From: Planctomycetota bacterium
GTDB taxonomy: Bacteria; Planctomycetota; SZUA-567; H5-PLA8
Assembly (NCBI GenBank): GCA_015075375.1
Contig: JABTUM010000002.1
Coordinates: forward strand, 853,393 to 917,392
Reading direction: 5' to 3'
Length of the DNA stretch: 64,000 nt
Shown here: piece by piece, positions 10,207 to 61,632 of the stretch
Layout: each line of letters begins with the position of its first letter
Numbering within the stretch: the first letter of the stretch is position 1
Notes under the pieces: generated by a model
What the model saw: only the letters and a program-made list of their open reading frames with translations
Told to the model about the DNA's origin: nothing
Database searches by the model: none
Made by a program: the position numbers and the translations under genes

Positions 10207-10253
10207 GAGTCTCGTTCCGTGTTTCGTAGCGAGGGCCTAAGTCGAAAATCCGG

Positions 10254-12293
10254 CTAGTACTTGACGATGACGTTCATGAACCCCGAAAGCTGAACGCCGC
10301 TGGTGTCGTAAATCTTCTTGTACCCATCGAAAGGCTGCAGCGCCGCGACGCCGCCGGTCAGGATGATCTGCTGGTTCAGCAGCGGGCGGTAGATCAAGCC
10401 CAAGCTGTAATCCAAGCCGATCTCCTTGCTGATTGCTTCCTGCCCCAGCAGGAATTCCAGCGAGGTGGTGTCCGCGAACTTCAGGTAGTTAATGTTCGCC
10501 ACCGCGCGCAAGCTGGGCGTCAGTTCGGCGTCGTACCCGATGTTGAACAGGTGAACACCGGGGTTGACGAAGTTGGCCTGACCTTCCTCTTTTCCCGCGC
10601 TCAGGTTTGGAATCAGCGAGTTGCGGCTCTTCAGGAGCGTGAAGGTATTGCCCGCGCCGAAGCCTTGACGCACCCAGTAGCTGAATTGCCCGCCCGCGAA
10701 CTCGGGATTCTCGAAGATCGAATCGAAACCTTCGGCCTTGTCGTCTTCCGGATCTTCATCACCACTCGAATAGAAGTAGCTCGTGCGGAAGCGCATCCAG
10801 TCCCAGTCGTAGGACAGCTCGGCCGCGAACATATGCGCCAGGATGTCCGTCTGCTGGCCGGCGATCGGATTCAGCGTGTCTTCGCCGTAGGCAAGGTAGT
10901 ACTGGTGCGAAAGATTGAAGCGGCCGATGTGCCCGTTGCCGCCGAAGCCTACGTAGCCCACCTTGTTCGAATGCGGCTGTCCGCTGCCGATCGGCGTCGG
11001 GCGAACCGGAACCCCGTTCTGGTTGAATTCCACGCTTGCTTCTTCGACGCTCAGGCCCACCTGCCCGATGATGTTGTAGCCCTTCACAAACGTGTCCTGC
11101 CGAATCAGGTTCGCCAGGAACACATGCTCGTCTTTCATCTGGAAGAGCGTGTTGAGCCCCGAGTTCGTGTCCTTATTCAGCATTTCCCAGTAGGTGAAGT
11201 TGTACTGGAGGCGATTGTTCTCGTACGTGCCGAAGAGGCGCGCGCCGAGCTGGTTGTCGGCGAAGAGGAAGCCGCGGAAGTCGTGGTTGTAGAACTGAAT
11301 GCCTGCGCGGCCCGCGATGAAGTCGTAATTCGGGCTGATGTCCACGAAATGGTATTCGCCGAACAGTTCCTGGAACGCGATCTGGTGGTCCAGGCGGTCG
11401 CGGCCTTCGCGGCTGTCGATGTTCACCGCCAGCCGTTCGTCGGTGTTGATGTAGTTGATGTTGAAGACCGGCGTCACACGGGCTTCCCAAGCGCGCGGCT
11501 TGAAGGCCGTTTCGCCGCCGAAGAACTCGACCGAAAGGAAGAAGTTCTGCTGGACGAAGGTGGCTTCCGGCGAACCGAAGAAGTCGAAACTGCCCGGGCG
11601 GAATGGCGTATTGCCCGAGGGAGTCGGGATCTCCCGGAATTCGGCCGTCGTGTCCGAGCCGGCGTTGATGACCAGGAACTTATCCTGGCCCAGGATCGGG
11701 TAATCGCCCTTCAGTACGTTCTGGCGGTAAGGATTATGCCAGGCGTTGTTGGTGACGTGCCGGGGGCTGTGAGGGAAGCCGATACCCCAGCGGTTGCCCA
11801 CCGGCAGCAGCGGCTCCTGATCGATCGCCCAGCGCGGAACTTTATTCTTTTTCCATGCCGCGCGGCCCAATTCTCCGCCTAAGCGTCCGTTGGTCGGTTC
11901 GTCCTTCTTCTCGGCGTCGTGGTAGAGGTCCACGAGTTCCGGCTCATCCGGATCCTCGCGCTTGGCCTCTGGCTTAGGTTGCTCGCCCTCGGCGGCCGCA
12001 GCCGTCTCGGCGGGCTTGGCTTCAGCCGCGGGAGCCGCCGTGCCTTCGGCGGGCTTCGCTTCGGCCGCAGGAGTCGCGGGGGCCGCGGTCCCTTCGGCGG
12101 GCTTGGGCGCCTGCCCTTCCGCGGGCTTTTCGCCTTCGCGGAAGCGCTTGTAGCGCTCTTCTTCCGTTTCGGGCTTCGCTTCGGCTTCGCCGGCGCAGCA
12201 CCGCTGAGAGCCCAAGCCGGCGACCGTCGCAAGCAGCAGCACCCAGGAGGATAGAATGAGTCCGAGTGGGATTTTCACACGTGCAAGGTACAT
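10254..12293 (-). CDS. Putative outer-membrane beta-barrel (porin-like) protein with an N-terminal Ala/Pro/Glu/Lys-rich linker.
   Basis: It has a signal peptide (LILSSWVLLLATVAGLG) and 87 aa of AEAKPAEGTAAP-type repeats. A roughly 550-aa region with alternating hydrophobic/aromatic beta-strand patterns (YNFTYWEM, FNLSHQYYLAYG, LSYDWDWMRFRTSYFY) ends in an aromatic residue (...NVIVKY). No enzyme motif was seen. It sits directly upstream of, and co-oriented with, the decaheme lipoprotein. Confidence 0.45.
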   Translation of the reverse strand: MYLARVKIPLGLILSSWVLLLATVAGLGSQRCCAGEAEAKPETEEERYKRFREGEKPAEGQAPKPAEGTAAPATPAAEAKPAEGTAAPAAEAKPAETAAAAEGEQPKPEAKREDPDEPELVDLYHDAEKKDEPTNGRLGGELGRAAWKKNKVPRWAIDQEPLLPVGNRWGIGFPHSPRHVTNNAWHNPYRQNVLKGDYPILGQDKFLVINAGSDTTAEFREIPTPSGNTPFRPGSFDFFGSPEATFVQQNFFLSVEFFGGETAFKPRAWEARVTPVFNINYINTDERLAVNIDSREGRDRLDHQIAFQELFGEYHFVDISPNYDFIAGRAGIQFYNHDFRGFLFADNQLGARLFGTYENNRLQYNFTYWEMLNKDTNSGLNTLFQMKDEHVFLANLIRQDTFVKGYNIIGQVGLSVEEASVEFNQNGVPVRPTPIGSGQPHSNKVGYVGFGGNGHIGRFNLSHQYYLAYGEDTLNPIAGQQTDILAHMFAAELSYDWDWMRFRTSYFYSSGDEDPEDDKAEGFDSIFENPEFAGGQFSYWVRQGFGAGNTFTLLKSRNSLIPNLSAGKEEGQANFVNPGVHLFNIGYDAELTPSLRAVANINYLKFADTTSLEFLLGQEAISKEIGLDYSLGLIYRPLLNQQIILTGGVAALQPFDGYKKIYDTSGVQLSGFMNVIVKY
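11990..12130 (-). repeat. Coding low-complexity tandem repeat (KPAEGTAAPAxPAAEA) in the beta-barrel gene linker.
   Basis: Visible as repeated GGCGGGCTTCGCTTCGGCCGC-type units in the DNA and as repeats in the translation. Confidence 0.5.
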
Positions 12294-12525
12294 GAGTGTA
12301 CGAACCGCCCCCCAAGGCTAGTTGGTCCAGCCAGAAGGCCATATTTCAGGCGCGAAGGTTCACAGTCTGGTAACGAGGCATTCGTTTACCATAGTTCAAG
12401 CACGAGGGCAACGGAAAATAGCGTTTTTGGGTTGCCTGCACATGCGCTTGTGCTATGGTCCCGTCATCAACTTTGAAGCTGTTTGCGCGGGGCCATTCCC
12501 ACTGCGGGATACAAGGAGTTTTACC

Positions 12526-14721
12526 ATGTCCTTCAAGCCGGGACGCGCTACCTCTTATAAGCGCGTGGGGTTCCCATTTGCCGTTTGGGCCGCATTAGGG
12601 ATCGCCACCTCTGTTTTCGCTCAGACCCCTCCCCTGACTGTTGTAAATGATATCGCCAACGGTGGATTGGCGCCTCAGCCCGACCCGGCGCTCCTTGCTA
12701 CCGATGTCGATTTGATCCTCGCGCGCGCCGTGGCGCTGTTGACGAACCCCCGCATTGCTGAGGCCGGCATCATTGCGGTCACGGACCGCGAAGGCCACGT
12801 GCTGGGCGTATTGCGCATGACGCCCAGCGGCACGGACATCCGAATCAGCGAGCAGGCGATTCAAAAGGCTCGCACCGCCGGCTTTTTCCAGTCGGATTTC
12901 GGCGCGTTCACGACCTTGACGGCCGGATTCATCGTCCAAGAACATTTTCCACCCGGCTTTGGGAACCTCGAAGGCGGTCCGCTCTACGGCGTGCCGTTCT
13001 CGTCATTCCCCAAGGGAGCTGCCCTGAACTCTTATACGGGTGGCTTCGACGGACAGCTTCAGGTCCCACGTTTCATCGTCTTCGTCAACAACGTCAATAC
13101 GGGCGGTTCCGATCCGGACGGCATTAACCCGGAACGCCCGGCCGACGACAGCCAGTCGCTGGTCATTACGCCGGTGACGGACGATCTGGGCGGCGTGCCG
13201 CTCTTCAAACTGGGCGGGCTGCCTAAGGGCCGCTTGGGCGCCATCAAGCCGCATCGCCGCGGCGTGGGCGGCGTGGGCGTCGAGATCGACGGCTTTGGGA
13301 CCTTGGCCGACTACGGCACCGACCTTTCCCCCGGCATCATCGATGAAGGTGTCAACCGTCTCGCTCCGGGCGGATCACGTCGTGCACTGGAAGAGGCGAC
13401 CGCCTTCTTTGCGCAGGTTCCGTTCAAGCCGCCCGGTGGGGTGCAGGCTACGCGTGTGCTGGTCAACGGTTTCCGCTTCCCGTACGCCTTCCGCGCGGGC
13501 GCCGGCGTACGTGTGCGGCAGGCCGATATCGACGCGGTGCTTTTGGCCGGCGTGGGGACCTTCGGCACGCTGGAAGATTACCTCGATACGGACGGCGGCG
13601 AACGCGATCCCAACGGCACGCAGGTACCGGTCGGCGCGATTACCGAAGTCGTGGGCGGCGGCGGCGCCACCCGCGATACGCCGGAACAAGAATTCCCGCG
13701 CCAAGGTTGGGTGCCGCGCTACCTGCCGGTGGACAGCACCTTCCCCGCCACGGCGGACGGCGGCCTGACGACCGCGGACGTGAACCTGATCGTGGGTCAG
13801 GCGGCGGCGGTGGCCGAACGCACCCGCGCCGCGATTCGCCGCCCCATCGGCCAGCCGATGCGTATTTTCATCTCGGTCGTGGACCTCGCCGGCAACGTCT
13901 TGGGCGGCTTCCGCACTAACGATGCGACGGTCTTCTCCTTCGATGTCTCGATCCAGAAGGGCCGCACGGCCGCCTTCTTCAGCACCGATCAGGTCGGCTT
14001 CTCGGCGCGCGCCATCGGCTTCATGAGCCAAGTCATGTTCCCGCCGGGCTTGGGTCGAAATCCCACCGGTCCGCTTAGCGGCCTGTTGGGACCGGGTGGC
14101 GGCATCGATCCCGCCACGCTGGATGCCGACGGCGTTACGGGCGACCTGACCCAAGGCAGCGGATTGCTCAAGGAAATCAGCCACCTGCTCAATGACGAAG
14201 CCGTAGGTTTTGCGCCTGCCGACCTCGATGATGCCGTTCAGATCCTCTCTCGGCGCATGGTTCATATCCGCGACGGCCGCCTTAGCCCGCTCCAGTTGTG
14301 CATGACGGTCGCTTTGACGCTCGATGCGCGCGGCGTGGGTGCGGTGGCCACGACGGTGCCGAACGGGATCACCATCTTCCCGGGCGGCGTGCCGCTGTAT
14401 AAGGTGAATCCCAATACCGGTCAGACCGTGCTGGTCGGCGGCCTGGGCATCTCCGGCGACGGCGTGGACCAGGACGACGCGGCGGCCTTTGGCGGTTCGT
14501 TGGGCTTCCGCCCGGGTCCGGGGGTTCTTTGTGACGAAGCGAGCCCGCCTGCGATTCAGGCCGCTTTGCTGAACGCCGTGACCAAACTGCGCAACGAGTT
14601 CCCCAACCTGGGCCAGGGCGACGGGGTTCTGGACGTGCTCGAAGCGCGCATCCTCTCCGGAAACATCCTGCAGGGGTTGCGCTTGCCTTACATCAAGCTG
14701 CCCAGGAGTCCCGGGCGCTAA
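12526..14721 (+). CDS. Secreted protein with two GlcG/HbpS-like (DUF336) heme-binding domains.
   Basis: ATG at 12526 with a CAAGGAG RBS, and a signal peptide. Two segments match the DUF336 pattern (IIAVTDREGHVLGVLRMT...QKARTAGFF and ISVVDLAGNVLGGFRTND...IQKGRTAAFF). The end is domain-typical (GGVPLY...GGLGISGDG). Confidence 0.55.
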   Translation: MSFKPGRATSYKRVGFPFAVWAALGIATSVFAQTPPLTVVNDIANGGLAPQPDPALLATDVDLILARAVALLTNPRIAEAGIIAVTDREGHVLGVLRMTPSGTDIRISEQAIQKARTAGFFQSDFGAFTTLTAGFIVQEHFPPGFGNLEGGPLYGVPFSSFPKGAALNSYTGGFDGQLQVPRFIVFVNNVNTGGSDPDGINPERPADDSQSLVITPVTDDLGGVPLFKLGGLPKGRLGAIKPHRRGVGGVGVEIDGFGTLADYGTDLSPGIIDEGVNRLAPGGSRRALEEATAFFAQVPFKPPGGVQATRVLVNGFRFPYAFRAGAGVRVRQADIDAVLLAGVGTFGTLEDYLDTDGGERDPNGTQVPVGAITEVVGGGGATRDTPEQEFPRQGWVPRYLPVDSTFPATADGGLTTADVNLIVGQAAAVAERTRAAIRRPIGQPMRIFISVVDLAGNVLGGFRTNDATVFSFDVSIQKGRTAAFFSTDQVGFSARAIGFMSQVMFPPGLGRNPTGPLSGLLGPGGGIDPATLDADGVTGDLTQGSGLLKEISHLLNDEAVGFAPADLDDAVQILSRRMVHIRDGRLSPLQLCMTVALTLDARGVGAVATTVPNGITIFPGGVPLYKVNPNTGQTVLVGGLGISGDGVDQDDAAAFGGSLGFRPGPGVLCDEASPPAIQAALLNAVTKLRNEFPNLGQGDGVLDVLEARILSGNILQGLRLPYIKLPRSPGR

Positions 14722-14785: not shown

Positions 14786-14955
14786 TGGCATTTCCTGTGC
14801 TTTGGTAAGGGTTTGGAGTACCATACTGCCGCCTGAGGATGCACCGGAATTCGGCATGTTGCTTGGGGATTCATTGATGGCCGCGGCCACCTCGGCGCGT
14901 CTTTTGGGGACAGTCTTACGCGAGAGCTGCTGAGCAGCTCGAATTGGGAACCGGC

Positions 14956-16953
14956 ATGCTCCGCTCGATCTTCCGTTTCTGTGGCTCGCTCAAGCTGGCC
15001 ATTATCCTGCTCATCGTGCTTGCGGCCGCCTGTGCCTACGGCACGATCGTCGAAAGCAACTTCAATACCGAGGTGGCCCGCGCGTACGTGTACAACGCGA
15101 TGTGGTTCAACGTCTGGCTGGCGGTCCTGATCGTAAACCTGTTCTGCGCCGCGATGGTCCGCTATCCCTGGAAGCCGCACCTGACGGGCTTCGTGATCAC
15201 CCATGCCGGCATCATCTTGCTCCTAATCGGCGGGATCATCGACCGTCTTTGGGGCATCGAAGGCTTCGTGCCGCTCACCATCGGCGAAGCGCCCACCAGC
15301 ATCATGGAACTGCATGAGGAAGAAACCACGCTTTGGGTGGACGGGAAAGAGATCACGCGCACCCCGTTCAAGGTGGACCTGCTGAAGCAGAAGAAAGAAA
15401 AGAAGTTCAGCATGGAGACGGGAATCGAGGGCCTGGCGGTCGATTTCATCGACCTGGAGCCGGTGGCGGCGACGATCACGGGCCTGGAACCGGTCGAAGA
15501 CGATTCGGGCATGCCGGCGCTGCTCTGGACGCTGGACGCGCCGCAAATGGGCGGGGCGCACGACCAGGTCCTGTTCCTCAATCAGCAGGAAAATCTGGGT
15601 CCGGCCACGGTGAGCTTCATCAAGGGCCTCCCGCCCGAGCCGAACGCCTCCGCAACCACCCCCGAAGGGACGCCCGGCGAGGGCAAGATGGTTCCGCGCC
15701 GCGAGCGGCATTATCAGTTCTCCAAGGATGCGCTTAAGGATCAGGTGCCGGCGATCGTGGTGGCGGGCGAGGCGACCGGGGCGAAGTCGGAAGTCTCGGT
15801 CAGCGAGGACGGCCAGATCGTGATTTTGCGCGTCACGCTGGAAGGCAAGTCGGCCGATTTCGGCGTCCGCGGCAAGATCGGCCAGGATCAGCCGTTCGAA
15901 GGGCTGCCGGACTGGAAGGTGATCGTCCGGGGCTACTTCCCCAACTTCCGCATGCAGGGCAATCAGCCGGCGACGCTGAACGAGAAGCCCGAAAATCCGG
16001 CCGTCGCGTTCGAACTGGTCGGTCCGCTGGTCAAGGACGAAGGCCCCAAGCCGCAGGCGAATCCGCACGGCCAGCCGGCCGGTCCGCACGGCAAACCGGC
16101 GGGCGAATTCGGCGATCCGAACCTCAACCAGTTGACCTTCTTCCTGGGCGAGGACGGCAAGCTGCGCTATTTCATGAAGTCGCGCCAGAAGGGCGAACAG
16201 CGCGGCGACGTGGTCATGGGCGAAGCGTTCGAAGGGTTCATTCCGGGCTCGAAGATCTCGGTCAAGGAGTTCAACCCCAAGGCGCGCCCCAAATTCGCCT
16301 GGGCTCCCGTGGGCGATACGACCCCGATGGCCGCCAAGCGCCATGCCTACGGCTTGCACGCGCACGTCACGTACAACGGCGAGACGCAGACCCTGTGGGT
16401 GGGCAAGAGCGGCGATCCGTTGAAGCCGGTGCGCCAGGCGCTCACGTTTGGCGATAAGACCGTCGAACTGGCCTTCGCCGCGCGCACGATGGAACTGCCT
16501 TTCGGGCTTGAACTGGTTCAGACGGCCGCGCCGCACCAGGAAGGCCTGGAAGGCTCCAACGCCTTTGCGGCCTTCGAGAGCACGCTGCGCTTCGACGGCG
16601 ACCATCAGGCCAAAATCTACATGAACCACCCCACCACCTACCCCGTCACCGCGGCGGGGCCTTGGCTGGGGACGACGTACAAGTTCTCTCAGGCCAGCCA
16701 CGGCATGCTCTTGACACCCCCCCGCCCCGATTGGTCGGGGATTCAGATATTGCGCGATCCGGGCTGGGCGCCCAAGTGGGTGGGCTGTCTGATGATCTGC
16801 TTCGGCATCTTCACGATGTTCTACTTGAAGCCGTACTTTAAGAGCGGGCCGGTGAAGCGGACGGCGAAAGCCGCGCAGTCTCCGGCCGCCGCGGCCGCCA
16901 GCGCCGGAAAACTTGCGGCGGTCGCGCAGGAACAAGTCGGCAAGGAAGCTTGA
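14956..16953 (+). CDS. ccsB: Cytochrome c biogenesis protein CcsB/ResB (system II).
   Basis: The N-terminus (MLRSIFRFCGSLKLAIILLIVLAAACAYGTIVES) matches the ResB family start. There is a large periplasmic domain and C-terminal transmembrane helices. The gene is immediately followed by ccsA, 1 nt after its stop. Confidence 0.8.
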   Translation: MLRSIFRFCGSLKLAIILLIVLAAACAYGTIVESNFNTEVARAYVYNAMWFNVWLAVLIVNLFCAAMVRYPWKPHLTGFVITHAGIILLLIGGIIDRLWGIEGFVPLTIGEAPTSIMELHEEETTLWVDGKEITRTPFKVDLLKQKKEKKFSMETGIEGLAVDFIDLEPVAATITGLEPVEDDSGMPALLWTLDAPQMGGAHDQVLFLNQQENLGPATVSFIKGLPPEPNASATTPEGTPGEGKMVPRRERHYQFSKDALKDQVPAIVVAGEATGAKSEVSVSEDGQIVILRVTLEGKSADFGVRGKIGQDQPFEGLPDWKVIVRGYFPNFRMQGNQPATLNEKPENPAVAFELVGPLVKDEGPKPQANPHGQPAGPHGKPAGEFGDPNLNQLTFFLGEDGKLRYFMKSRQKGEQRGDVVMGEAFEGFIPGSKISVKEFNPKARPKFAWAPVGDTTPMAAKRHAYGLHAHVTYNGETQTLWVGKSGDPLKPVRQALTFGDKTVELAFAARTMELPFGLELVQTAAPHQEGLEGSNAFAAFESTLRFDGDHQAKIYMNHPTTYPVTAAGPWLGTTYKFSQASHGMLLTPPRPDWSGIQILRDPGWAPKWVGCLMICFGIFTMFYLKPYFKSGPVKRTAKAAQSPAAAAASAGKLAAVAQEQVGKEA

Positions 16954-16954
16954 A

Positions 16955-19009
16955 ATGATGACGAATGTGAAGCAAGTGTGGAGCCTGTGGGCGGCGGCGT
17001 TGCTGCTGGCCTTCAGCGCGGGCATGGCTTGGGCCGGCGAGGACCCGCACGGCGGCACGATCGATCCGCACGGGAAACTGGCCGATCCGCATGCCGGGCA
17101 CAACCACGGGTCCGATCCGCACGGCGCGCCGGCCGCCAACGAGGAACCCGAAGAGAAGCTCCCGCCGGCGGTGCTGGAAGGCGAACTGGATTTCCGCGCC
17201 ATCGAGAGCTTGGCGATTCAGGAAGGCGGCCGCAAGAAGCCGCTGCATACGTACGCCGTCGAAAGCCTGGAGCAGATCTGCGGGCGCTCCATCGCGCTGA
17301 TCAACAGCGCGCCGACCTTCAAAGACCCCTCCACCGGCGCTCCGCGCGAAGCCATCGACCTGTTCCTGGCCATGTGGCTCAATACGAGGCAGTGGTACAA
17401 AGAGCCCGTCGTGCTCGTTTCGCACCGTCCGCTGCGCGTCGAACTGGGACTCGATCCGGCCAAGAAGCATTTTTCCATCCAGCAGCTCATCGAGAATGAG
17501 GCGTTCAACAAGCTGTACGGGGAGGCCCTCGCCAAGCGCCACGCCGAGAAGGAAAAAGAGATGTCGGCGCTTGAGCAAGAAGCCGAACTGGTGGGCGCGC
17601 GGCTGGAATTGATGCGCAAGATCGTGACCGGGGAGGCCGTGCATATCGTCCCCCACCCCGCCGATCCGGACGGCACCTGGATCAGCCTGCGCGAGTTCCG
17701 TGCGATCGAGCAGAATCCGCCGCAGGCCACCGAGATCGTCGCGCAGCAGCGCTACAGCGGGAACGCCGAATTGGCTCAGAAGCTGGTGATGGATTACGCG
17801 AACAATTACAGCGAGGACCAGCTCTTCGCGCTCAACGATAAAGCCAAGCAATTCATGCTCGCCTACCGTGCGCGCGACAAGGAAGCCTTCTCCAAGACCG
17901 CCGCGGATCTGCGTACCTCGCTGGCCTCGATGAGCCCCGGCGTGTACCCCGACCAGACGGCGCTTTTACGCGAAATTCGCTTTAACGAAGCGCGCCCCTT
18001 CGGCAGCGCGTGGCGCTGGTACGTGATCGCCGCCATCGTCTGTTCCGTGGCCTTGAAGTTCGCCAACAGACCCTTCTACCTGGGTGCATGGGGCTGCTTC
18101 GTTCTGGGATTGGGTTACCACGTGTGGGGCTTCACCCAACGCTGCTTGATCGCGGGCCGTCCGCCGGTGACGAACATGTACGAATCGGTGATCTGGGTCG
18201 GCTTCGGATGCGTCGCGTTCGCGCTGGCCTTCGAAGCGATTTACCGGACCCGGTACTACCTCCTCGGCGGTGCGCTGGGCGGGTTCCTGTGCCTGATGCT
18301 GATGGATCTGGTGCCCTATTTCGCCGGGAATGCGCATCTGCCGGGCTTCGAGGCGAAGATCAACCCGCTCGTCCCGGTGCTGCGCGATAACTTCTGGCTC
18401 ACCGTCCACGTGCTCACCATCACCGCCAGCTACGCCGCCTTTGCGCTGGCTTGGCTGATCGCCCACGTGACGCTGGGCTCGTACATCGTCAATCCCGGCG
18501 CTCAGATCCGCCACCGCCAGTTGCATGGCTTCGTCTACCGAGTCGTGCAAGTCGGCGTGTTGCTCCTGGCCACCGGAACCATCCTGGGCGGCGTCTGGGC
18601 GTACTATTCCTGGGGCCGATTCTGGGGCTGGGACCCCAAGGAGACCTGGGCCTTCATCGCGCTGCTGTGCTACCTGGTCTTCTTACACGGGCGCTTTACC
18701 GGCTGGTGGGGCAACTTCGGGCTCAGCGTCGGAGCGGTGGTCAGCTTCGTTTCGGTGGTGATGGCCTGGTACGGCGTGAATTTCGTCCTGGGCTCGGGCC
18801 TGCACAGCTACGGCGCCGGCGCCAACATGGGCCAGCAATACGTCTTCGGACTGGTCTGCTTGGACCTGCTTTTCGTCACCGTGGCGATCTGGCGCAACTA
18901 CGCCTTCCGGCACGACTCCAACGCCGAAGAACCCGATGCCGACGCGGAAGAGAAGCTCACCGCCACCGACCCCATCGACGAAGAGCTGGAAGTCACCGCC
19001 AAAGCGTAA
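16955..19009 (+). CDS. ccsA: Cytochrome c biogenesis heme exporter CcsA/ResC with a roughly 300-aa N-terminal periplasmic extension.
   Basis: ATG at 16955 with a CAAGGAAG RBS. It has a signal peptide, then four DPH(G/A) repeats, then the CcsA core with the WWD signature (WGRFWGWDPKETWAFI). Confidence 0.8.
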   Translation: MMTNVKQVWSLWAAALLLAFSAGMAWAGEDPHGGTIDPHGKLADPHAGHNHGSDPHGAPAANEEPEEKLPPAVLEGELDFRAIESLAIQEGGRKKPLHTYAVESLEQICGRSIALINSAPTFKDPSTGAPREAIDLFLAMWLNTRQWYKEPVVLVSHRPLRVELGLDPAKKHFSIQQLIENEAFNKLYGEALAKRHAEKEKEMSALEQEAELVGARLELMRKIVTGEAVHIVPHPADPDGTWISLREFRAIEQNPPQATEIVAQQRYSGNAELAQKLVMDYANNYSEDQLFALNDKAKQFMLAYRARDKEAFSKTAADLRTSLASMSPGVYPDQTALLREIRFNEARPFGSAWRWYVIAAIVCSVALKFANRPFYLGAWGCFVLGLGYHVWGFTQRCLIAGRPPVTNMYESVIWVGFGCVAFALAFEAIYRTRYYLLGGALGGFLCLMLMDLVPYFAGNAHLPGFEAKINPLVPVLRDNFWLTVHVLTITASYAAFALAWLIAHVTLGSYIVNPGAQIRHRQLHGFVYRVVQVGVLLLATGTILGGVWAYYSWGRFWGWDPKETWAFIALLCYLVFLHGRFTGWWGNFGLSVGAVVSFVSVVMAWYGVNFVLGSGLHSYGAGANMGQQYVFGLVCLDLLFVTVAIWRNYAFRHDSNAEEPDADAEEKLTATDPIDEELEVTAKA

Positions 19010-19115: not shown

Positions 19116-19868
19116 TTACTCAAGCGCTTGGCGAACCGCCTCTGGCCATATCGTCCCCACATCGCCTTCCAGCCGCAGGGTCACGCAGGCTTCGCCATCT
19201 TGGTCGGTCGGGCCTTGGTTGACGATGACGTAAGGCACACCGCGTCTGGCCGCGGCCAGCGGAATCCCGGCGGCCGGATGAACCGATAGCGTACTGCCCA
19301 GCGCCACGCACAGGTCGCAGCGCCGAGCCGCCTCGTACGCGTTCAAAAGGTCTTCTTCGCGCAGGGACTGCCCAAAGCTGACCGTCGCCGACTTGAGCCA
19401 CCCGCCGCAGGCGCAGACGGGCGGCGTGCGCGTGCGCGCGAAGGCTTCGAAGTGCGCGGCCGGCGCGCTGCGCGCTTTGCAGGTCTGGCATTCGACTTCG
19501 GTAGCCGTGCCGTGGACTTCGACCAGCGCTTCCCGCGGCAACCCCGCCGCCTGATGCAAGCCGTCGATGTTCTGCGTGACGCAACGCTCGAGCTTGCCCG
19601 CCGCGTGCAGTTCGGCGACGGCCCGGTGCGCCGCATTGGGTCGCGCCTTCGAAAAGGCCTCGAAAGCGTGCAGCTTCTGGCCCCAGTACTCCACCCGGGC
19701 GGCGTGGTCGGTCATGAAGTCCTGATAGTAGACGGGCTGGAACGTCTTCCAGACGCCTTGCGGCCCGCGGAAATCCGGGATGCCGCTGCCGGTGGAGATG
19801 CCCGCGCCGGTAAAGACGAGGATCCTGCGCGCGGCGCGAAGCAGGTCGGCGAATCGACCGCTTTCCAT
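19116..19868 (-). CDS. cobB: NAD-dependent protein deacylase (Sir2/CobB family).
   Basis: It has the Rossmann motif FTGAGIST, the TQNIDGLH motif and the CxxC...CxxC zinc site. The start is trimmed to the ATG at 19868 (MESGRFADLL...). Confidence 0.8.
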   Translation of the reverse strand: MESGRFADLLRAARRILVFTGAGISTGSGIPDFRGPQGVWKTFQPVYYQDFMTDHAARVEYWGQKLHAFEAFSKARPNAAHRAVAELHAAGKLERCVTQNIDGLHQAAGLPREALVEVHGTATEVECQTCKARSAPAAHFEAFARTRTPPVCACGGWLKSATVSFGQSLREEDLLNAYEAARRCDLCVALGSTLSVHPAAGIPLAAARRGVPYVIVNQGPTDQDGEACVTLRLEGDVGTIWPEAVRQALE

Positions 19869-19971
19869 AGGCCCTCGATTCTTGCGCCTACCGCTTGGGC
19901 TTCCGCCCCACCCGTTCGTTCCCGGCTTCGTGGCGGTCCCGATGCCCCTGGGCGCCCGGCCTGGGCCCATG

Positions 19972-20025: not shown

Positions 20026-21726
20026 CTACTTGCCGGCTTCCTTCATGATCTTCTCGATGTCCGGCAGGCCGTGGCCGCAGCGGACACAGTACTTGTAGTC
20101 CTTCGGCCATTTCACGCCGCATTCCGGACAGAAGACGAACTTACCCCATTCTTCCTTGGTCAGCGGCGCGCGCTTGGACGGATCTTCCTGGGCGGGCGGC
20201 GGCGTCGATTCGACCTTGGGCGGCGTGGCCGCAGGAGCCTCGGTCTTGGCTTCGACCTTCGGGGCTTCGGTCTTCGCTTCGGGAGCCGCGGCCGGAGCTT
20301 CGGTCTTCGCTTCGACCTTGGGCTCTTCGGTCTTGGCCGCGGGCGGCGGTTCGGGCGTCTTGGCTTCGGCAACGGCCGGAGCGGAGGCCGCGCCGCCGCC
20401 GGGGCCGCCCGGAGGCAGCGGAATCGCCGTCCCGCCCTTGAAGGTGTCCACGAGCGTCTTCGCCACGGGGATAAACTTCTTCTTGTCGAAGTCCTCGCGC
20501 GTGGCGAGCACTTCGTAAAGCTTGTCCATCGTCGCCTGCCGCGCGTCGGCGTCGCCCTTGCCTTCCTTGTCCAGAACCATCGAGAGCGAGGTGAGGGACA
20601 AGACAAGCTGCTCTGCGGCGCGGAAGCCGACGTTGCCGCAAGCTTCGCCTTCGGCGGCGATGCCCGAACGCCACTTGGTCGTCACTTCTTCGCTGAAAGT
20701 GAACTTGTCCACGGCATCGGCCAGCGCTTCCGCCGTTTTGGCCATTTCCTTCAGGGCCCCGGCGGCCTTGGCCGGATCGGTCCAGCCGTCGTGCGCCGCC
20801 TTGAGGTGTTTGTCCAGCTCGTCGAGCTTGGCCTTATCGACCAGCGCCGCGACGTGGCGCGTCATCAGCGCATGCGCGGCCAACTGGTAGTAGCTGTCCA
20901 CGACCAGGTCTTCGCGCGCCTTTTGCTCCAAGCGCCCGGCAAGCTGATACGCCGATTCGCGCAGCGCGACCGTCTGGCCCATCGCCCACGCTTTGGTCCC
21001 CGACCACGGCGTCTTGTCGCGCCAGTGGATCCAGGCTTCGTCCGAACTGAAAACGTGCAACTCGAAGGGAAGCTCGGGGTGGCCGGCCTGAATCAGTTCG
21101 GAGCTGATCTGCAAGTGGCAGGAGATGCACTGGTTGGCGCGGAACTTCATGTTCTTCGTGTCGTACAGCCCCCATTCGTCGTAGAGCTTCTGGGCGCCTA
21201 ATTCTTTGCGCAGCTTATCGGTCCAGCCCTTTTCGGTGTGCGCTTTGAGGTACTTGTCGGCCGGGCCGTGGCAGCTATCGCAGCTCACCCCGTCCTCGAT
21301 GCTGTATCCCTTGGCCTGAATGTCCTCGGGCTTGAGCACGATGCGCTTAGAGCCGTTGGCCAGGTGCAAACCGGACAGCGCATGGCAGTCGATGCACTTC
21401 TCGCTCTTCGTCGGATCCGGAATGTTCAGCTTCTTGGCTAGGTCCTTGGAAACATCGTTGGAGAGCGAGGTATAGGCCTTGGCATGCTTATCGTTGTTCG
21501 ACCAGACGTGATTTTCGTTGTGCCGGGTGGCGCCGCCCTCTTTGGGCGTCGCCGAACCGTGGCAGGCCGCCGCGCTGCACGCGCCCGCTCCGGTGTATTT
21601 GATCCCCTGCGGATCGGCCAGAACTTCGCTTTCCAAGCCGGTCCAATCGCTGAACGCCGCCAGCAGCGCCCCCAGCAGCACGACGGCGCCGATGGTAGCC
21701 CACTTTACCCGTGCACGAATCGCCAT
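20026..21726 (-). CDS. Membrane-anchored tetraheme c-type cytochrome with a TEA/AKTE-repeat linker and a C-terminal double zinc ribbon.
   Basis: It has an N-terminal hydrophobic anchor and four CxxCH motifs (CSAAACH, CIDCH, CDSCH, CISCH). A low-complexity AKTEAPKVEAKTEAP linker follows. The C-terminus is FCPECG...YCVRCG. Confidence 0.75.
   Translation of the reverse strand: MAIRARVKWATIGAVVLLGALLAAFSDWTGLESEVLADPQGIKYTGAGACSAAACHGSATPKEGGATRHNENHVWSNNDKHAKAYTSLSNDVSKDLAKKLNIPDPTKSEKCIDCHALSGLHLANGSKRIVLKPEDIQAKGYSIEDGVSCDSCHGPADKYLKAHTEKGWTDKLRKELGAQKLYDEWGLYDTKNMKFRANQCISCHLQISSELIQAGHPELPFELHVFSSDEAWIHWRDKTPWSGTKAWAMGQTVALRESAYQLAGRLEQKAREDLVVDSYYQLAAHALMTRHVAALVDKAKLDELDKHLKAAHDGWTDPAKAAGALKEMAKTAEALADAVDKFTFSEEVTTKWRSGIAAEGEACGNVGFRAAEQLVLSLTSLSMVLDKEGKGDADARQATMDKLYEVLATREDFDKKKFIPVAKTLVDTFKGGTAIPLPPGGPGGGAASAPAVAEAKTPEPPPAAKTEEPKVEAKTEAPAAAPEAKTEAPKVEAKTEAPAATPPKVESTPPPAQEDPSKRAPLTKEEWGKFVFCPECGVKWPKDYKYCVRCGHGLPDIEKIMKEAGK
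20205..20345 (-). repeat. Coding tandem repeat (AKTEAP/KVE units) in the tetraheme gene linker.
   Basis: Repeated CTTCGGTCTTCGCTTCG-type units appear in the DNA and as repeats in the translation. Confidence 0.5.
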
Positions 21727-21822
21727 GGCCTCGGACGCTCCCTAAAAGTTCGCACTCGAACCGGCTGTGCGCCGGCCCCCTGAAGGGCTGGACGCCTCGG
21801 CCGGAGGCTTATTCAGTTCCGG

Positions 21823-23586
21823 CTACTGCTGCAACTGCGTTCCGCAGCGCGAGCAGAACTTCGTCTTGCCCGGCCAGCGCAGACTGCAATTGGGACAAAG
21901 GATCGAGTTGCCCGCCTGAACGCCCACGCCTTCGGTTTTGGCCGGCGCGGCGGCAGGAGTTTCGGTCTTGGCGGCTTCCGTTTTGGCAGCTTCGGTCTTG
22001 GCTGCGGGAGCCGTTTCCGTCTTGGCGGCTTCGGTCTTCGCCGCGGGCGCTTCTTCGGTCTTGGCCTCCGTCTTGGCAGCCGGTTCGGGCTCGCCGCCGC
22101 CTACGTCGCGCGAGACGATCTTGCCCGCTGGGACGCCGCCCATATCCGTCCCTTGTTCCAGTTCCAGAATGGTGCGCATGCCGATGAAATTCGAGAAGGA
22201 CTTGTCGTGATACAGATGGCATTCCACGCAGCCCGACCGGGCGCCGCCCTGCGGCGAGTGGCACTTGAGGCACTTATCGCGGCTGGGGATCAGAATATCC
22301 GCCGTCGTGGTGCTTTGCGCCGCTTGCACGTGGCATTCGGTGCATTGGAGCACGCGATGGCTCTCGTGGTCGAAGAAGACGCTCTTGGGCGACTTGGCAT
22401 GCGCCGGATTGCGCGGGAACCAGCTTCGCGGCACCTGCGGATCGACGTACAGAGGCAATTCGGTACCGGGAACCTTTCCGTTCACTTCATGGCAGTACGC
22501 GCACGTGCCGCCGTCCTTGAACATCGGCTCAAGAGTGGCCTTCACGTTTTCGTTGAGCCATTCTTCGACCGGGCGGTCGTCCGGCGACTCGACGAACTCG
22601 GGCTCCGTGGGCTTCTGTCCCGGGCGCGGCTTCTTGTACTTGGGATTCTTGACCTTCTTGGGCGGCAGCTTCCCGCCGGATTTGATCAGGTAGTCCTTGA
22701 AGGCCGCGCCGACCTTGGCCGCGACGAGGTCCGACTGCGCGTGCGGCAGCGGCACGTCGCCGATGTTCGCGATCGGCGCAAGCTGCAGCGGGTGGCACAT
22801 CTGGCAGTGCATCTCGAAGTTCACCGGCGCCATGTAGGCGCGCTGCGTATCGGGCGCGTGGCAGTCGAAGCAGTCCAGCGTCGCGCCGGCCACTTTCTTA
22901 AAGCCCGCTTCCAGGCCCATGCGCTGCTTGATCTGGTCGTCCGACCACTTCACTTCCATATGCGCCTTGTGGTTGTACTTCAGCGGCGTCGTGTCCTTCT
23001 CCTTATCGGTGAACATGCGGAATTCGGGGTGGCCGTCTAGGGTCCCAAAGTCGGTTACCTTCGCGAAGAACTTCGCTCCGCCATCGGAGACTTGCAGGTT
23101 TTCGTGGCACTGCGTGCAATGGCGGTCGGCCGTTGCGGCGAGTTCGGCATGGCCCTTGTGCTCGACGTGGCAGCTCGCACAGGTGGCCGTCTGGACCTGC
23201 ACGGGTTTGCCGCCGCGCATCACGGTCATCGTGTGCCCGCCGGGATGGACCATGTTGAGATGGTGGGCCGGACCGTCGTGGCAGCTCAGGCATTTCGCGT
23301 CGGTTACTTTACCCCAGCCGTTGGGGCCGCTTTCGTGGCATTCGATGCAGCGATGCCCGAAAATCGCGTGCTTGCTGCTCACCGGGCCGGGCAAGTACAC
23401 GTTATCGCCGGTCTTGGTGTAGAGCAGCGCCGCCATGCCCAACCCCGCCGCCAGGAAGAGCAGCCAGTTGAGCGTTTTGTACATGCTGCGCCACGGATGC
23501 GGACGCGCGTGGTAGCTGCGGTCCACTCGTTGCGCGCGGGCCTTCTGCTGCGTCGTCAGCTTATCGGCGGTTACGTCTCGGGACAT
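21823..23586 (-). CDS. Membrane-anchored decaheme c-type cytochrome with an AKTE-repeat linker and a C-terminal double zinc ribbon.
   Basis: A 37-aa N-terminal tail is followed by a transmembrane helix (NWLLFLAAGLGMAALLY). Ten CxxCH motifs are present. A linker reads AAKTEAAKTETAPAAKTE... The C-terminus is LCPNCS...FCSRCG. Confidence 0.8.
   Translation of the reverse strand: MSRDVTADKLTTQQKARAQRVDRSYHARPHPWRSMYKTLNWLLFLAAGLGMAALLYTKTGDNVYLPGPVSSKHAIFGHRCIECHESGPNGWGKVTDAKCLSCHDGPAHHLNMVHPGGHTMTVMRGGKPVQVQTATCASCHVEHKGHAELAATADRHCTQCHENLQVSDGGAKFFAKVTDFGTLDGHPEFRMFTDKEKDTTPLKYNHKAHMEVKWSDDQIKQRMGLEAGFKKVAGATLDCFDCHAPDTQRAYMAPVNFEMHCQMCHPLQLAPIANIGDVPLPHAQSDLVAAKVGAAFKDYLIKSGGKLPPKKVKNPKYKKPRPGQKPTEPEFVESPDDRPVEEWLNENVKATLEPMFKDGGTCAYCHEVNGKVPGTELPLYVDPQVPRSWFPRNPAHAKSPKSVFFDHESHRVLQCTECHVQAAQSTTTADILIPSRDKCLKCHSPQGGARSGCVECHLYHDKSFSNFIGMRTILELEQGTDMGGVPAGKIVSRDVGGGEPEPAAKTEAKTEEAPAAKTEAAKTETAPAAKTEAAKTEAAKTETPAAAPAKTEGVGVQAGNSILCPNCSLRWPGKTKFCSRCGTQLQQ
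21925..22090 (-). repeat. Coding tandem repeat (AAKTE units) in the decaheme gene linker.
   Basis: Repeated GGTCTTGGCGGCTTCGGT-type units appear in the DNA. Confidence 0.5.
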
Positions 23587-23631: not shown

Positions 23632-24594
23632 TTAGTAGTAGAACGTCGCCTTCACGGCATGGAACGCCGAAAGCACCAGCAGCGCGTACGAGAGCGGCGC
23701 GTGCAGGAAGAGCCAGCAGTGAAGCCAGAAATGCAGGCGCTCCTGGAGTTTCAACTGGCGCCGTTCTTCGCAGATCGATTCCAGGTCGCGCAACGGCTCG
23801 TGCAGTGCTGCCGGCAGCAGCGTGCGCGTATGCTCGAAGAGCGCCATGCTGCTCTGCGGTATCGCCAGCTTCGTTTCTTCGGAGTACTCGCGGCCCAGGA
23901 ACGGGCGGATCACTTCGAGGTAAAACGCCTTGAGCGGCCCGCTGCCTTCCACCGGTCCGCCCGACCCGCCGCCACGGGCATGCGCCACGCGGCCCTTCAC
24001 GGCGCCTTGCGTGCGCACCGTTCCGGACATGCCGCCCGGCATTCGGTCCGCATCCTCGGGTTCCGCCGATTCCACGCCCAGCGGCCCGCAGAAGTTCCCC
24101 ACCAGCCGGTCGGCTTCGCGCCGCAGCGTCTCGATCACCTGCGGAATCTGCTCGAACGTGCTCTCCGCGGGTAACCGGTCCAGCATCGTCCGCGGGACCA
24201 GATTCTGCATGACGATCCCGAAGATGCCGCTGACGAGGACGATCGTAAAGAGGACCATCAGCCAGAAGCTGACGCCGTTTCCGAACTTCATTCCGGCGTG
24301 GAAAAGGATCAGCGGATAGGCCAGCAGACCCAGCCAGATGTGCGCCCGCAGCCAGCCTTGCACGCGCCCCAGCCGCCAGATGCGGAAGTGCTTACGCACC
24401 CCCAGCAAGCCGCAGAAGATCATCATCGAGTACCCGATGATGCCGAAGGTCAGCCCCGACCAACTGCCGCCGGACGGGCCGTTACCCCCGCCGCGGTAAG
24501 CGGCTTGGCTGTAGAACGTGTAGTAAGCGGCGGCCACGACGAAAGCGACGACCGTGAACGTAATCCAACTGCGATGGCTCTTATCGATGAGCAC
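23632..24594 (-). CDS. Polytopic membrane protein with conserved His in its transmembrane helices, possibly a b-type heme/quinol-interacting anchor. It is the first gene of the cytochrome operon.
   Basis: GTG start with a GGGGAG RBS. It has at least five predicted transmembrane helices with His in TM3 and TM5 (LAYPLILFHAG, HFWLHCWLFLHAPLSYALLVLSAFHAV). No recognisable enzyme motif was seen. Confidence 0.45.
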   Translation of the reverse strand: MLIDKSHRSWITFTVVAFVVAAAYYTFYSQAAYRGGGNGPSGGSWSGLTFGIIGYSMMIFCGLLGVRKHFRIWRLGRVQGWLRAHIWLGLLAYPLILFHAGMKFGNGVSFWLMVLFTIVLVSGIFGIVMQNLVPRTMLDRLPAESTFEQIPQVIETLRREADRLVGNFCGPLGVESAEPEDADRMPGGMSGTVRTQGAVKGRVAHARGGGSGGPVEGSGPLKAFYLEVIRPFLGREYSEETKLAIPQSSMALFEHTRTLLPAALHEPLRDLESICEERRQLKLQERLHFWLHCWLFLHAPLSYALLVLSAFHAVKATFYY

Positions 24595-24813
24595 CGGAAG
24601 CTCTCCCCTGACTAAGCTCCTGCTCGTGACCCCGGCACCGGCGGCTTAGCACCTCAGGCTGGCGTAGACTCCACTTCGAGCCGACACAAATCGCCCTGAG
24701 GCCCTCACTTCGGGCGGTGCAATAGGGCATGCGCATTGAGATGTTCAGACTCTAGCGGCCTCCTGGGGTTTGCGTCAAGAAAAACACCGATAAAGGCCGT
24801 CCATATAAAGACT

Positions 24814-60863: not shown

Positions 60864-61442
60864 TCACATCTGCTGCGTAATCCAGTGGGCCAGATACGCC
60901 AACCCCACCGCCGTGCTGAAGAGGACGAGCGCGCGGCCGTATTCATCCCACCACGTATAGGTGGGCAAATTCAGCCGGCTTTGGCTGATGCGCGGGGATT
61001 CCGGCTTCGCAGGCGCGGGTTCCGGCTTCTCAGTCATCCGCAGCAAAGTCAGAGGGACGGCGACCCGTACCGTGGAGTTCGGGGCTCGATTGGTGATCGC
61101 GCCAATGCCGGCTTTGGGGTCGTAACGAGCTTGGCTTCGTTGCGCTTCTTGCCGTTTCACCTCTTCGCGCTCGGCCTGGCGTTCTGAATAGATCCGCGAT
61201 GGCGCCGGGCGATCTGGATGGGCCACGGTTGCTTGGTCCTCATCATCCGATTCGCGTAACGCCTCGGCCTGGAAGCCTCGGTTAAAGCAGATCTCGCAAA
61301 CCGGCCTGCCCAGCGGATCCGGGAACCAAGCGGTATCCAGCAGGAACATCCCGCAACTCACGCATTGCGCGTCTTGATCCACGGTGCGCCGCGAACCTTT
61401 GGGCGCCGGTGGCTTGGGGATGCGCAGCAGCTCGGTGTCCAT
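60864..61442 (-). CDS. Zinc-ribbon protein with a C-terminal transmembrane anchor, hypothetical.
   Basis: It has CVSCG...CEIC Cys pairs near the N-terminus, a charged middle, and a C-terminal helix (ALVLFSTAVGLAYLAHWI). ATG at 61442. Confidence 0.4.
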   Translation of the reverse strand: MDTELLRIPKPPAPKGSRRTVDQDAQCVSCGMFLLDTAWFPDPLGRPVCEICFNRGFQAEALRESDDEDQATVAHPDRPAPSRIYSERQAEREEVKRQEAQRSQARYDPKAGIGAITNRAPNSTVRVAVPLTLLRMTEKPEPAPAKPESPRISQSRLNLPTYTWWDEYGRALVLFSTAVGLAYLAHWITQQM

Positions 61443-61632
61443 GGCTTGAACGCTCCACGAGGCCAGCCTGTGAGAATTTCCCACATGCGTTGCACCAATA
61501 AACGGTCTGCATTACCGCTCGTTCGGCCGTTCGAAATAGGGCAAGGGATATGCCAAAAAAGAAGAGCCGCCGGAAGTAATCCAGCGGCGCCTTGTGAGCA
61601 CAGTATGGAGTGATAGGTGGAAGCGCGGCCGC

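Follow-up and report, generated by a model that had tools for sequence, protein, structure and literature searches.

In this study, we report that two adjacent genes of a Planctomycetota bacterium (GenBank assembly GCA_015075375.1, contig JABTUM010000002.1) encode multiheme c-type cytochromes which finish in the same type of tail, namely a disordered spacer of 70–80 amino acids (aa) followed by a single four-cysteine zinc ribbon that, as judged from the predicted topology, must be located in the periplasm. The genes, designated A (decaheme cytochrome) and B (tetraheme cytochrome), lie within a window of 64 kb, the whole stretch of DNA that was analysed, with a guanine plus cytosine (G+C) content of about 64%. 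The novelty is that of a familiar zinc-ribbon domain in an unfamiliar compartment and architecture, which is conserved, phylogenetically narrow and undescribed. In full-text literature searches no account of a multiheme or periplasmic cytochrome with a zinc ribbon was found, and a paper on metal cycling in Planctomycetota (PMC10732223) mentions none of zinc, LVIVD, multiheme or decaheme. Protein B is 100% identical to the database entry HS116_16475 [Planctomycetes bacterium] (P0121), and a 98% identical locus belongs to Planctomycetota bacterium AMX-MBFR-7. Related loci and homologues are cited below by L and P numbers, respectively. The features of both genes are as follows.

21823–23586, minus strand: gene A, 587-aa decaheme c-type cytochrome, predicted to be anchored in the inner membrane (open reading frame (ORF), CxxCH count, Pfam)
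23419–23475, minus strand: predicted signal-anchor transmembrane (TM) helix of A, aa 38–56, the sole such segment (Kyte-Doolittle 19-aa mean 1.65)
22216–23349, minus strand: heme-binding region of A, from the Cys at aa 80 to the His at aa 457, with 10 CxxCH motifs
21910–22143, minus strand: disordered spacer of A, aa 482–559, AAKTE-type repeats (AlphaFold2 confidence score, pLDDT, about 35)
21826–21909, minus strand: single zinc ribbon of A, aa 560–587, Cys564/567/578/581 (PF13240, AlphaFold2)
20026–21726, minus strand: gene B, 566-aa c554-like cytochrome (tetraheme) that also has a helical domain, a spacer and a zinc ribbon
21652–21708, minus strand: N-terminal hydrophobic segment of B, aa 7–25, signal peptide or anchor (Kyte-Doolittle 1.99)
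21115–21579, minus strand: heme region of B, with Cx4CH at aa 50–56 (C50, C55-H56) and CxxCH at aa 111, 149 and 200
20398–21021, minus strand: all-helical domain of B, aa ~236–443, with an EfeO/EfeM/Algp7-like (M75/imelysin-like) fold (AlphaFold2 and Foldseek)
20191–20397, minus strand: disordered Pro/Ala/Lys/Glu/Thr spacer of B, aa 444–512 (pLDDT about 40)
20029–20190, minus strand: ribbon module of B, aa 513–566, with the lead-in SKR..P..EEWGK, Cys533/536/547/550 and a C-terminal helix

An initial annotation of this DNA had placed two multiheme cytochromes at 20026–23586, and the ORF list contains two neighbouring minus-strand frames at precisely these limits. It had assigned 10 hemes to A and four to B, counts which are reasonable in view of the motifs and of the homologue alignments. 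Every one of the 10 CxxCH motifs of A was invariant in an alignment of 82 homologues, and the only cysteines outside them are residues 564, 567, 578 and 581 of the ribbon. The heme motifs of B were likewise invariant among 42 aligned homologues. Its first site, of the Cx4CH type, is conserved without exception in the family and takes the usual CxxCH form in orthologues, and therefore four hemes can reasonably be counted. One lone Cys was found in B besides the heme sites and the ribbon residues Cys533/536/547/550.

The N-terminus of A consists of a basic stretch of 37 aa followed by a single TM-like segment (aa 38–56), which AlphaFold2 modelled as a helix spanning aa 31–55 with a pLDDT above 90. 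Within the N-terminal stretch (23476–23586, minus strand), which is cytoplasmic, K15, R20 and Y25 were nearly invariant and the consensus AQRIDLxYFKRxHPxRRW was obtained from the 82 homologues; this conserved motif may be where A contacts a partner in the cytoplasm or the membrane. The heme domain scored above the cut-off of the c3/c7-type multiheme families PF14537 (37.8 bits) and PF14522 (35.7 bits). Its region aa 62–165 resembles NrfH (PDB 2j7a_C, E 5e-4), and the TM helix and first four hemes are similar to the NrfH/NapC layout, but the score against the NrfH family TIGR03153 was only 13.9 bits for a cut-off of 134 and, in contrast to NrfH, NapC and CymA, A has six further hemes, 10 in all, and is always preceded by the gene M described below. 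No match of A to the DmsE/MtrA family TIGR03508 (cut-off 192 bits) was obtained, the score of B being 14.3 bits.

Protein B matched the cytochrome c554 family PF13435 with 31.2 bits over aa 70–154 (cut-off 20.8), and its aa 74–221 aligned with cytochrome c554 (PDB 1bvb, E 1.5e-4). It was rejected as an orthologue of Nitrosomonas CycA, since the score against the NCBIfam equivalog NF043010 was 31.6 bits for a cut-off of 400. B differs from cytochrome c554 by the added EfeO-like helical domain and, as A does, by the spacer-ribbon tail. Foldseek aligned the helical domain with 7wgu_A (E 0.012, probability 1.0, TM-score on target 0.43–0.57), and no conserved HxxE metal motif was seen in it by eye. 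The body of B (aa 40–443) was modelled with pLDDT values of 85–98. Both proteins had been described as anchored in the inner membrane, which agrees with the TM segment of A. For B, by contrast, a candidate cleavage site lies between AFS and D (between AVNA and LP in one orthologue), and its N-terminus is probably a cleavable Sec signal peptide, which would make B a soluble protein.

The location of the ribbons follows from that of the hemes. Cells attach c-type hemes to proteins at the outer face of the cytoplasmic membrane, and no hydrophobic stretch was found after the last heme of either protein, the maximum Kyte-Doolittle value over 19 aa being 0.43 in A and 1.11 in B. In 10 ribbon-bearing database homologues scored in the same way, the post-heme maximum did not exceed 1.22, vs. 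1.65–2.0 for the N-terminal segments. A cryptic C-terminal TM segment, which had been named beforehand as the finding that would return the ribbon to the cytoplasm, is thus absent from A, B and these homologues. Given that the hemes are periplasmic and no TM segment follows them, the ribbons of A and B must be periplasmic too, as far as topology can be read from the sequences.

The tails had been described as double zinc ribbons, but each of them has only one CxxC-x10-CxxC unit with four cysteines. The PF12773 (DZR) model requires eight ligands over 45 positions and was matched at positions 1–23 only, that is, over half of its length, so membership in this family failed and a single ribbon per tail was concluded. 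Within the whole proteins, PF13240 gave 20.1 bits for B and 14.9 bits for A, both under the cut-off of 25 bits. When isolated tails were searched, all 13 matched PF13240 (best E 2.2e-7), that of B with 25.9 bits, above the cut-off; the C-x2-C-x10-C-x2-C pattern and a Gly were invariant in them. AlphaFold2 modelled the ribbon of A as two beta-hairpins (pLDDT about 80; strands 561–563 and 570–572) and that of B, over aa 520–566, as hairpins plus a helix at 557–563 (pLDDT 60–76; strands 530–532 and 539–541). The ribbon of A superimposed on those of L40e, RanBP2, NZF and RadD with a root mean square deviation of 0.8–1.4 Å over 24–28 residues, although with Foldseek E-values that were non-significant owing to the short length. 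In the same search, which compared the A model with the PDB, the ribbon alone was matched; the lack of a match for the heme domain is expected, the model being apo.

A profile of the 13 tails retrieved canonical PF13240 proteins, all of 90 aa or less, from a collection of 5.8 billion proteins (best E 3e-13). With a profile of 10 tails against 1.84 billion representatives, 12,655 clusters were recovered at E ≤ 1e-3, and the best 150 of these were multi-ribbon proteins, whose scores add up, with no cytochrome among them. On this sequence evidence, the tail ends in a single ordinary zinc ribbon which is part of the huge generic PF13240 family. The tails share motif, length and predicted fold with PF13240 Zn_Ribbon_1 (also with PF12773 and PF13248), but they have a family-specific W-P after the first knuckle. 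Two B homologues (P0139 and P0146, of 588 and 592 aa), in which the preceding linker is extremely rich in Pro and Val, have Asp in place of the fourth Cys (FCPECG...YCPVDG). This Cys3Asp variant keeps a set of ligands, while two disulfides would leave an odd Cys; in addition, a knuckle of 25 residues requires a metal for folding. Therefore, metal binding by the Cys4 knuckle is likely, Zn2+ being the most likely ion.

The placement of the ribbon had also been thought unusual, and a metagenome scan agreed with this. The scan used a DNA pattern for the B-type first knuckle (FC[PLT]ECGxx[WF]P), and the further cytochromes recovered were all B-type. The other ribbons with readable membrane segments either preceded TM segments at the N-terminus or came after a TM helix near the C-terminus, as in a protein of L025 (signal peptide, ectodomain, TM helix, RYWKRR, ribbon), or after a TM hairpin at the N-terminus. 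All these sampled relatives fit a ribbon on the cytoplasmic side. In a Ser/Thr kinase encoded next to a related cytochrome gene of a Terriglobia metagenome-assembled genome (MAG; L014), the kinase domain is followed by a Pro/Ala-rich linker, the ribbon and a TM helix. In A and B, however, an exported heme domain precedes the ribbon and no TM segment lies between them, an atypical placement.

The spacers are of similar size in both proteins (69–78 aa by the model boundaries). As had been noted, they are of low complexity and encoded by tandemly repetitive DNA: imperfect repeats were located at 20234–20334 in the B linker (27 bp, 3.5 copies) and at 21961–22065 in the A linker (39 bp, 2.4 copies, and 15 bp, 2.8 copies), and pLDDT stayed below 50. 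Such DNA had been expected to be length-variable, but no rapid variation was seen: near-identical strains have A proteins of 587, 587 and about 588 aa, a difference of about 1 aa at most; tail length differed among distant orthologues only (128–160 aa). It is the sequence of the linker that changes fastest: when A was compared with that of the 98% identical strain, 5 of the 13 substitutions fell at aa 501–551, and between clades it is wholly different (AKTE-type vs. Pro/Val-rich) while length and low-complexity composition are kept. This is as expected of a spacer. We estimate its contour at about 23–30 nm (69–78 aa at 0.34–0.38 nm per residue), comparable to the Gram-negative periplasm.

The ribbon itself is highly conserved. 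B aa 520–566 are 94% identical to those of the L001 orthologue, while the other regions are 64–66% identical, and no substitution was present in either ribbon between the 98% identical strains. In orthologues with 32–48% overall identity, the ribbon was conserved roughly as much as the heme domain. These comparisons show purifying selection on the ribbon at the sequence level. The tail was also paired on both genes. In all six syntenic lineages with the ribbon on A (the window/L009, L001, L002/L003, L005, L050 and L051) the adjacent B carries it as well, and in L008, the sole ribbon-less locus holding both genes, it is missing from both. A and B were the only ribbon-ended ORFs of the window, and almost no other ORF with such a C-terminal ribbon was found in 16 related loci.

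Among the matches listed, the full four-Cys ribbon was present in 7 of 120 proteins of the A type and 3 of 45 of the B type, to which one frameshifted B-type homologue and the two Cys3Asp ones are added. The tail occurs only within one Planctomycetota-centred sub-clade of two particular families. Thus, the proposal of a shared and undescribed module on respiratory cytochromes stands as far as its conservation and the literature are concerned, but the module is not general to such cytochromes. In a neighbour-joining tree of the A heme domain (without support values), the ribbon-bearing members fell in one clade with one ribbon-less member nested in it. The sister clades have K/E/P/A-rich tails of 52–94 residues without ribbon, and the distant members tails of about 22 residues, which suggests that the spacer is the older part and the knob a later addition. 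The B tree placed the ribbon bearers at scattered positions; they share the lead-in SKR.P...E[WY]GK..FC.ECG..WP, a point in favour of an old presence followed by losses, or of ribbon-less paralogues. One such paralogue (P0125) is present in the same genome as L001.

Four features of the surroundings of A and B bear on their possible role.

23632–24594, minus strand: gene M, first in the putative operon, for a polytopic membrane protein of 320 aa (ORF and conservation)
10254–12293, minus strand: predicted outer-membrane beta-barrel, 679 aa, with a signal peptide, an A/E/K/P-rich N-terminal extension and an aromatic C-terminus
5821–10206, minus strand: LVIVD-repeat protein, 1461 aa, 10 CxxCH (Pfam LVIVD, E 2.6e-11; lipobox-like N-terminus, LALGTGC)
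14944–19009, plus strand: ResB-like (14944–16953) and CcsA-like (16913–19009) genes of system II cytochrome c maturation (Pfam PF05140, PF01578)

Gene M was directly upstream of the 10-heme gene in every related locus examined (L001:8886-9842, L002:8991-9944, L005:8994-9962, L008:7208-7999, L014:4977-5948, L016:2989-3972), and a weak promoter-like site was identified upstream of it at 24778–24749. No Pfam or NCBIfam match to M was obtained. Seven orthologues have invariant His85/His99 and His298/His312, that is, two H-x13-H pairs in TM helices, as well as His292. From this pattern, M is a probable di-heme b transmembrane electron carrier, and its orthologues look like an undescribed family of such carriers.

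The 679-aa protein is predicted to be an outer-membrane barrel from its signal peptide, its aromatic C-terminus (...NVIVKY; homologues finish in ...TLRY or ...VRFRF) and a weak porin match (NF033939, E 2.8e-4). The LVIVD protein is a candidate surface cytochrome; it gave 99.5 bits against the ExtM-like NCBIfam model, far below the cut-off of 800. The window also encodes an HbpS-like protein beside the LVIVD protein, the barrel and ResB/CcsA. The barrel gene was found next to the LVIVD cytochrome gene in L002, L005 and L008 too, and the companion set of LVIVD protein, barrel and HbpS-like protein (5821–12293, minus strand, and 12322–14721, plus strand, in the window) was shared with the same three loci, the LVIVD-repeat proteins measuring 1200–1460 aa, with about 10 CxxCH and a lipobox-like start, and the predicted barrels 630–690 aa. 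M, A, B and this set look like an uncharacterised trans-envelope electron conduit. Related clusters were detected in Planctomycetota and Terriglobia, and A homologues additionally in Methylomirabilota and Rokubacteria.

Our leading interpretation, which we hold tentatively, is that the tail is a metal-stabilised docking knob on a periplasm-spanning leash. The spacer would be exported along with the heme domains into the periplasm and remain unstructured there, and the Cys4 knuckle of about 25 residues at its end would fold round a metal ion, most likely Zn2+, and serve as a protein-protein docking handle. The leashes of A and B would tie both cytochromes to a common partner, or to each other, and keep a relay assembled that could run from the inner membrane (M and anchored A) to B and then to the outer-membrane barrel and the LVIVD decaheme module. 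A shared need to be tied down in this way is the likely reason why both cytochromes carry the ribbon. This interpretation is based on a spacer of fixed length but unconserved sequence, on a highly conserved knob present in both cytochromes, on the envelope-spanning context and on the fold, the nearest structures (RanBP2, NZF, L40e and RadD) being protein- or RNA-binding knuckles. A docking or targeting handle threaded towards the outer membrane had been suggested from the start; the gene context (predicted barrel and decaheme lipoprotein-like cytochrome) makes it plausible, while the identity of the partner is conjectural.

It must be noted that several observations weigh against this interpretation. 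When ribbon-bearing and ribbon-less neighbourhoods were compared, no gene specific to the ribbon-bearing loci was found; ribbon-less loci also have M, the barrel, the LVIVD cytochrome and the HbpS-like protein, and the majority of the proteins in either family function without a tail. On the 11-kb contig of L006, which encodes the ribbon-bearing B homologue P0123, an A gene is absent. We know of no Cys4 zinc sites in the periplasm, an oxidising compartment in which metal binding may have to compete with oxidation of the DsbA type. Finally, the AlphaFold2 models of A and B were built with family alignments as single chains, and monomers cannot show docking.

Other functions of the tail were considered. 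The four cysteines might bind iron as a rubredoxin-like Fe(Cys)4 centre, the leash making of it a mobile one-electron carrier between the hemes of A or B and a distant acceptor, by analogy with the tethered cytochrome c domain of membrane-anchored cytochrome c_y. The rubrerythrin C-terminal Fe(Cys)4 domain has the spacing CxxC-x12-CxxC, close to the CxxC-x10-CxxC found here, and is also a short knuckle at the C-terminus of a redox protein; moreover, the module is borne by electron-transfer proteins, the leash length fits the width of the periplasm, B also has a fold typical of periplasmic iron handling and Cys3Asp is still a possible ligand set for iron. Nevertheless, the rubrerythrin domain is cytoplasmic, packs on a partner domain without any long spacer and gave no sequence match. 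Pfam pointed to the zinc-ribbon families PF13240, PF12773 and PF13248, the 25 families listed as matches of the 13 tails include no rubredoxin family, and the closest relatives in sequence and structure are all zinc sites. In addition, the multiheme chains already provide electron carriers, the change of Cys to Asp would strongly shift the potential of an iron site, and the literature search returned no periplasmic rubredoxin. To our knowledge, none has been described. We consider this alternative unlikely, and grant the same low probability to the broader idea that the tails join directly in electron transfer, which would make them the first Cys4 metal knuckles outside the cytoplasm to do so on respiratory cytochromes. 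This idea has two possible versions, Fe-loaded rubredoxin-like "fly-cast" carriers bridging the periplasm and a leash threaded into the outer-membrane barrel that would wire the inner-membrane decaheme to the surface cytochrome; if true, either would be a new means of spanning a wide or variable planctomycete periplasm. It is quite unlikely that the four cysteines act instead as a thiol/disulfide or soft-metal(loid) site, either a redox switch or one that senses or scavenges Fe, Zn, Cu, selenite or tellurite, which would alter the conformation or associations of the cytochromes with the redox or metal status of the periplasm. Zinc-thiolate sites are established redox switches (Hsp33, RsrA), the tail would be exposed to the periplasmic redox environment, and the LVIVD cytochrome bears a distant likeness, far below the cut-off, to ExtM from a selenite/tellurite reduction operon; but one Cys of the Cys3Asp variants would have no pairing partner, the annotation of the cluster genes scanned includes no thiol-disulfide oxidoreductase, and the long leash and the pairing on A and B would be left unexplained.

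A very unlikely alternative is that the ribbon works before export, folded with zinc in the cytoplasm just as synthesis finishes, as a chaperone or targeting handle, or as a C-terminal brake on release during heme attachment, and is afterwards unfolded and drawn through Sec. The known relatives are all cytoplasmic, the C-terminal zinc site of SecA, on a flexible linker, binds SecB, and the system II maturation genes adjoin the cluster in the window. This function would have no known precedent on a Sec substrate, and would not explain the long, periplasm-type spacer; furthermore, homologues with equal heme number mature without a ribbon, and ResB/CcsA are not linked to the cytochrome cluster in L001. 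Least probable of all, and largely refuted, is a tail without function, either a separate small cytoplasmic protein joined to the cytochromes by assembly or annotation error or a neutral, decaying accretion. Most homologues are tail-less, and in L001 (GCA_027493525.1, JAOSKN010000003.1; about 65% identity) B is annotated as a 469-aa gene and an overlapping 99-aa "zinc ribbon" gene comprising linker and ribbon. This apparent separate ORF was rejected, as the split is accounted for by a frame change of 1 nt in a C5 run (CCCCC) at L001:13230-13300, where the upstream frame degenerates to ...KPPRPRPKRRRKNPRR* and the shifted frame carries on the APETKTEAPKEE repeat into the ribbon. A homopolymer error in a long-read assembly, carried over into the NCBI annotation, is the probable cause. 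The ribbon had been taken to be in frame with the cytochromes, and so it is, in more than 10 independent assemblies and for both genes; besides, it is the best-conserved part of B.

With respect to known systems, the docking interpretation finds a functional analogy in TonB, in which an anchor and a long Pro/Lys/Glu-rich spacer allow a small C-terminal domain to reach an outer-membrane partner. There is no sequence relationship, though: A and B have a large heme domain before the spacer, which in A follows the anchor, their tails end in a Cys4 knuckle and not in the TonB C-terminal domain, and ExbBD are lacking. The membrane-anchored cytochrome c_y of Rhodobacter is a respiratory electron carrier in which a flexible Ala/Pro-rich tether holds a small terminal domain, but that domain is a heme protein with a proven shuttle role and not a predicted Cys4 metal knuckle. 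As for the whole cluster, the predicted 679-aa barrel, the decaheme cytochrome and the 10-heme lipoprotein-like cytochrome recall MtrCAB of Shewanella and Pcc/Ext of Geobacter, and the cluster resembles a porin-cytochrome conduit, with its putative barrel, that has its own inner-membrane entry module. It differs in that no member scored above any family cut-off (99.5 vs. 800 bits for ExtM), A appears to be anchored in the inner membrane and has an NrfH-like start, and the candidate surface cytochrome has LVIVD repeats. We know of no described porin-cytochrome system with zinc-ribbon tails.

The crossing of a periplasm of 20–30 nm by electrons, from dehydrogenases to outer-membrane conduits, is only partly understood and is usually ascribed to diffusing cytochromes. 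A leash and knob conserved on both of these consecutive cytochromes would suggest physical tethering as another solution besides diffusion, in uncultured Planctomycetota of wastewater, anammox-type reactors and other metagenomes. The tails would also provide a clean, topology-fixed case of a zinc ribbon outside the cytoplasm, which bears on the role of an abundant but functionally obscure domain. The surrounding cluster, with its probable di-heme-b protein, anchored decaheme, c554/EfeO-like cytochrome, predicted barrel and LVIVD decaheme, is in itself a candidate for an uncharacterised trans-envelope conduit.

Some further traits of the related loci may be mentioned. Upstream of M, the relatives have a ferredoxin-like gene which is missing from the window. 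In L008:3377-7200, L002:6900-8984, L005:6687-8990 and L014:2208-4484 a cNMP-binding/4Fe-4S protein is encoded, while L001:8361-8849 has only a ferredoxin of 162 aa (small 4Fe-4S protein). In L008 this protein contains NuoG-like 2Fe-2S/4Fe-4S domains as well, with a NuoF-like (Complex1_51K) gene before its own, and the C-terminal end of that of L014 resembles an FHA domain by eye. These genes suggest a cytoplasmic NADH- or ferredoxin-linked input in the relatives, and regulation by cyclic nucleotide or phosphothreonine is possible. Directly 3' of the ribbon-less decaheme gene of the Terriglobia MAG (L014:7242-9168) there are a PP2C-type phosphatase-like gene (by eye) and a Ser/Thr kinase gene, and the decaheme homologues P0073 and P0095 carry FHA domains, which hints at phospho-regulation of such cytochrome systems.

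A gene for a Sir2-family deacylase was found 3' of B on the same strand (19116–19970, minus strand), and likewise in L001:13696-14448. In L016:4022-8281 (Planctomycetota ELA667) there are two tandem A paralogues of 711 and 676 aa, each with an insert of about 200 aa in the middle of the heme domain, and one of them has an A/K/P/T/E tail without ribbon. Elsewhere in the window, an ORF of 206 aa (60864–61484, minus strand) carries the motif CVSCG...x18...CEIC about 166 residues before its C-terminus, which is unrelated to the cytochrome ribbons.

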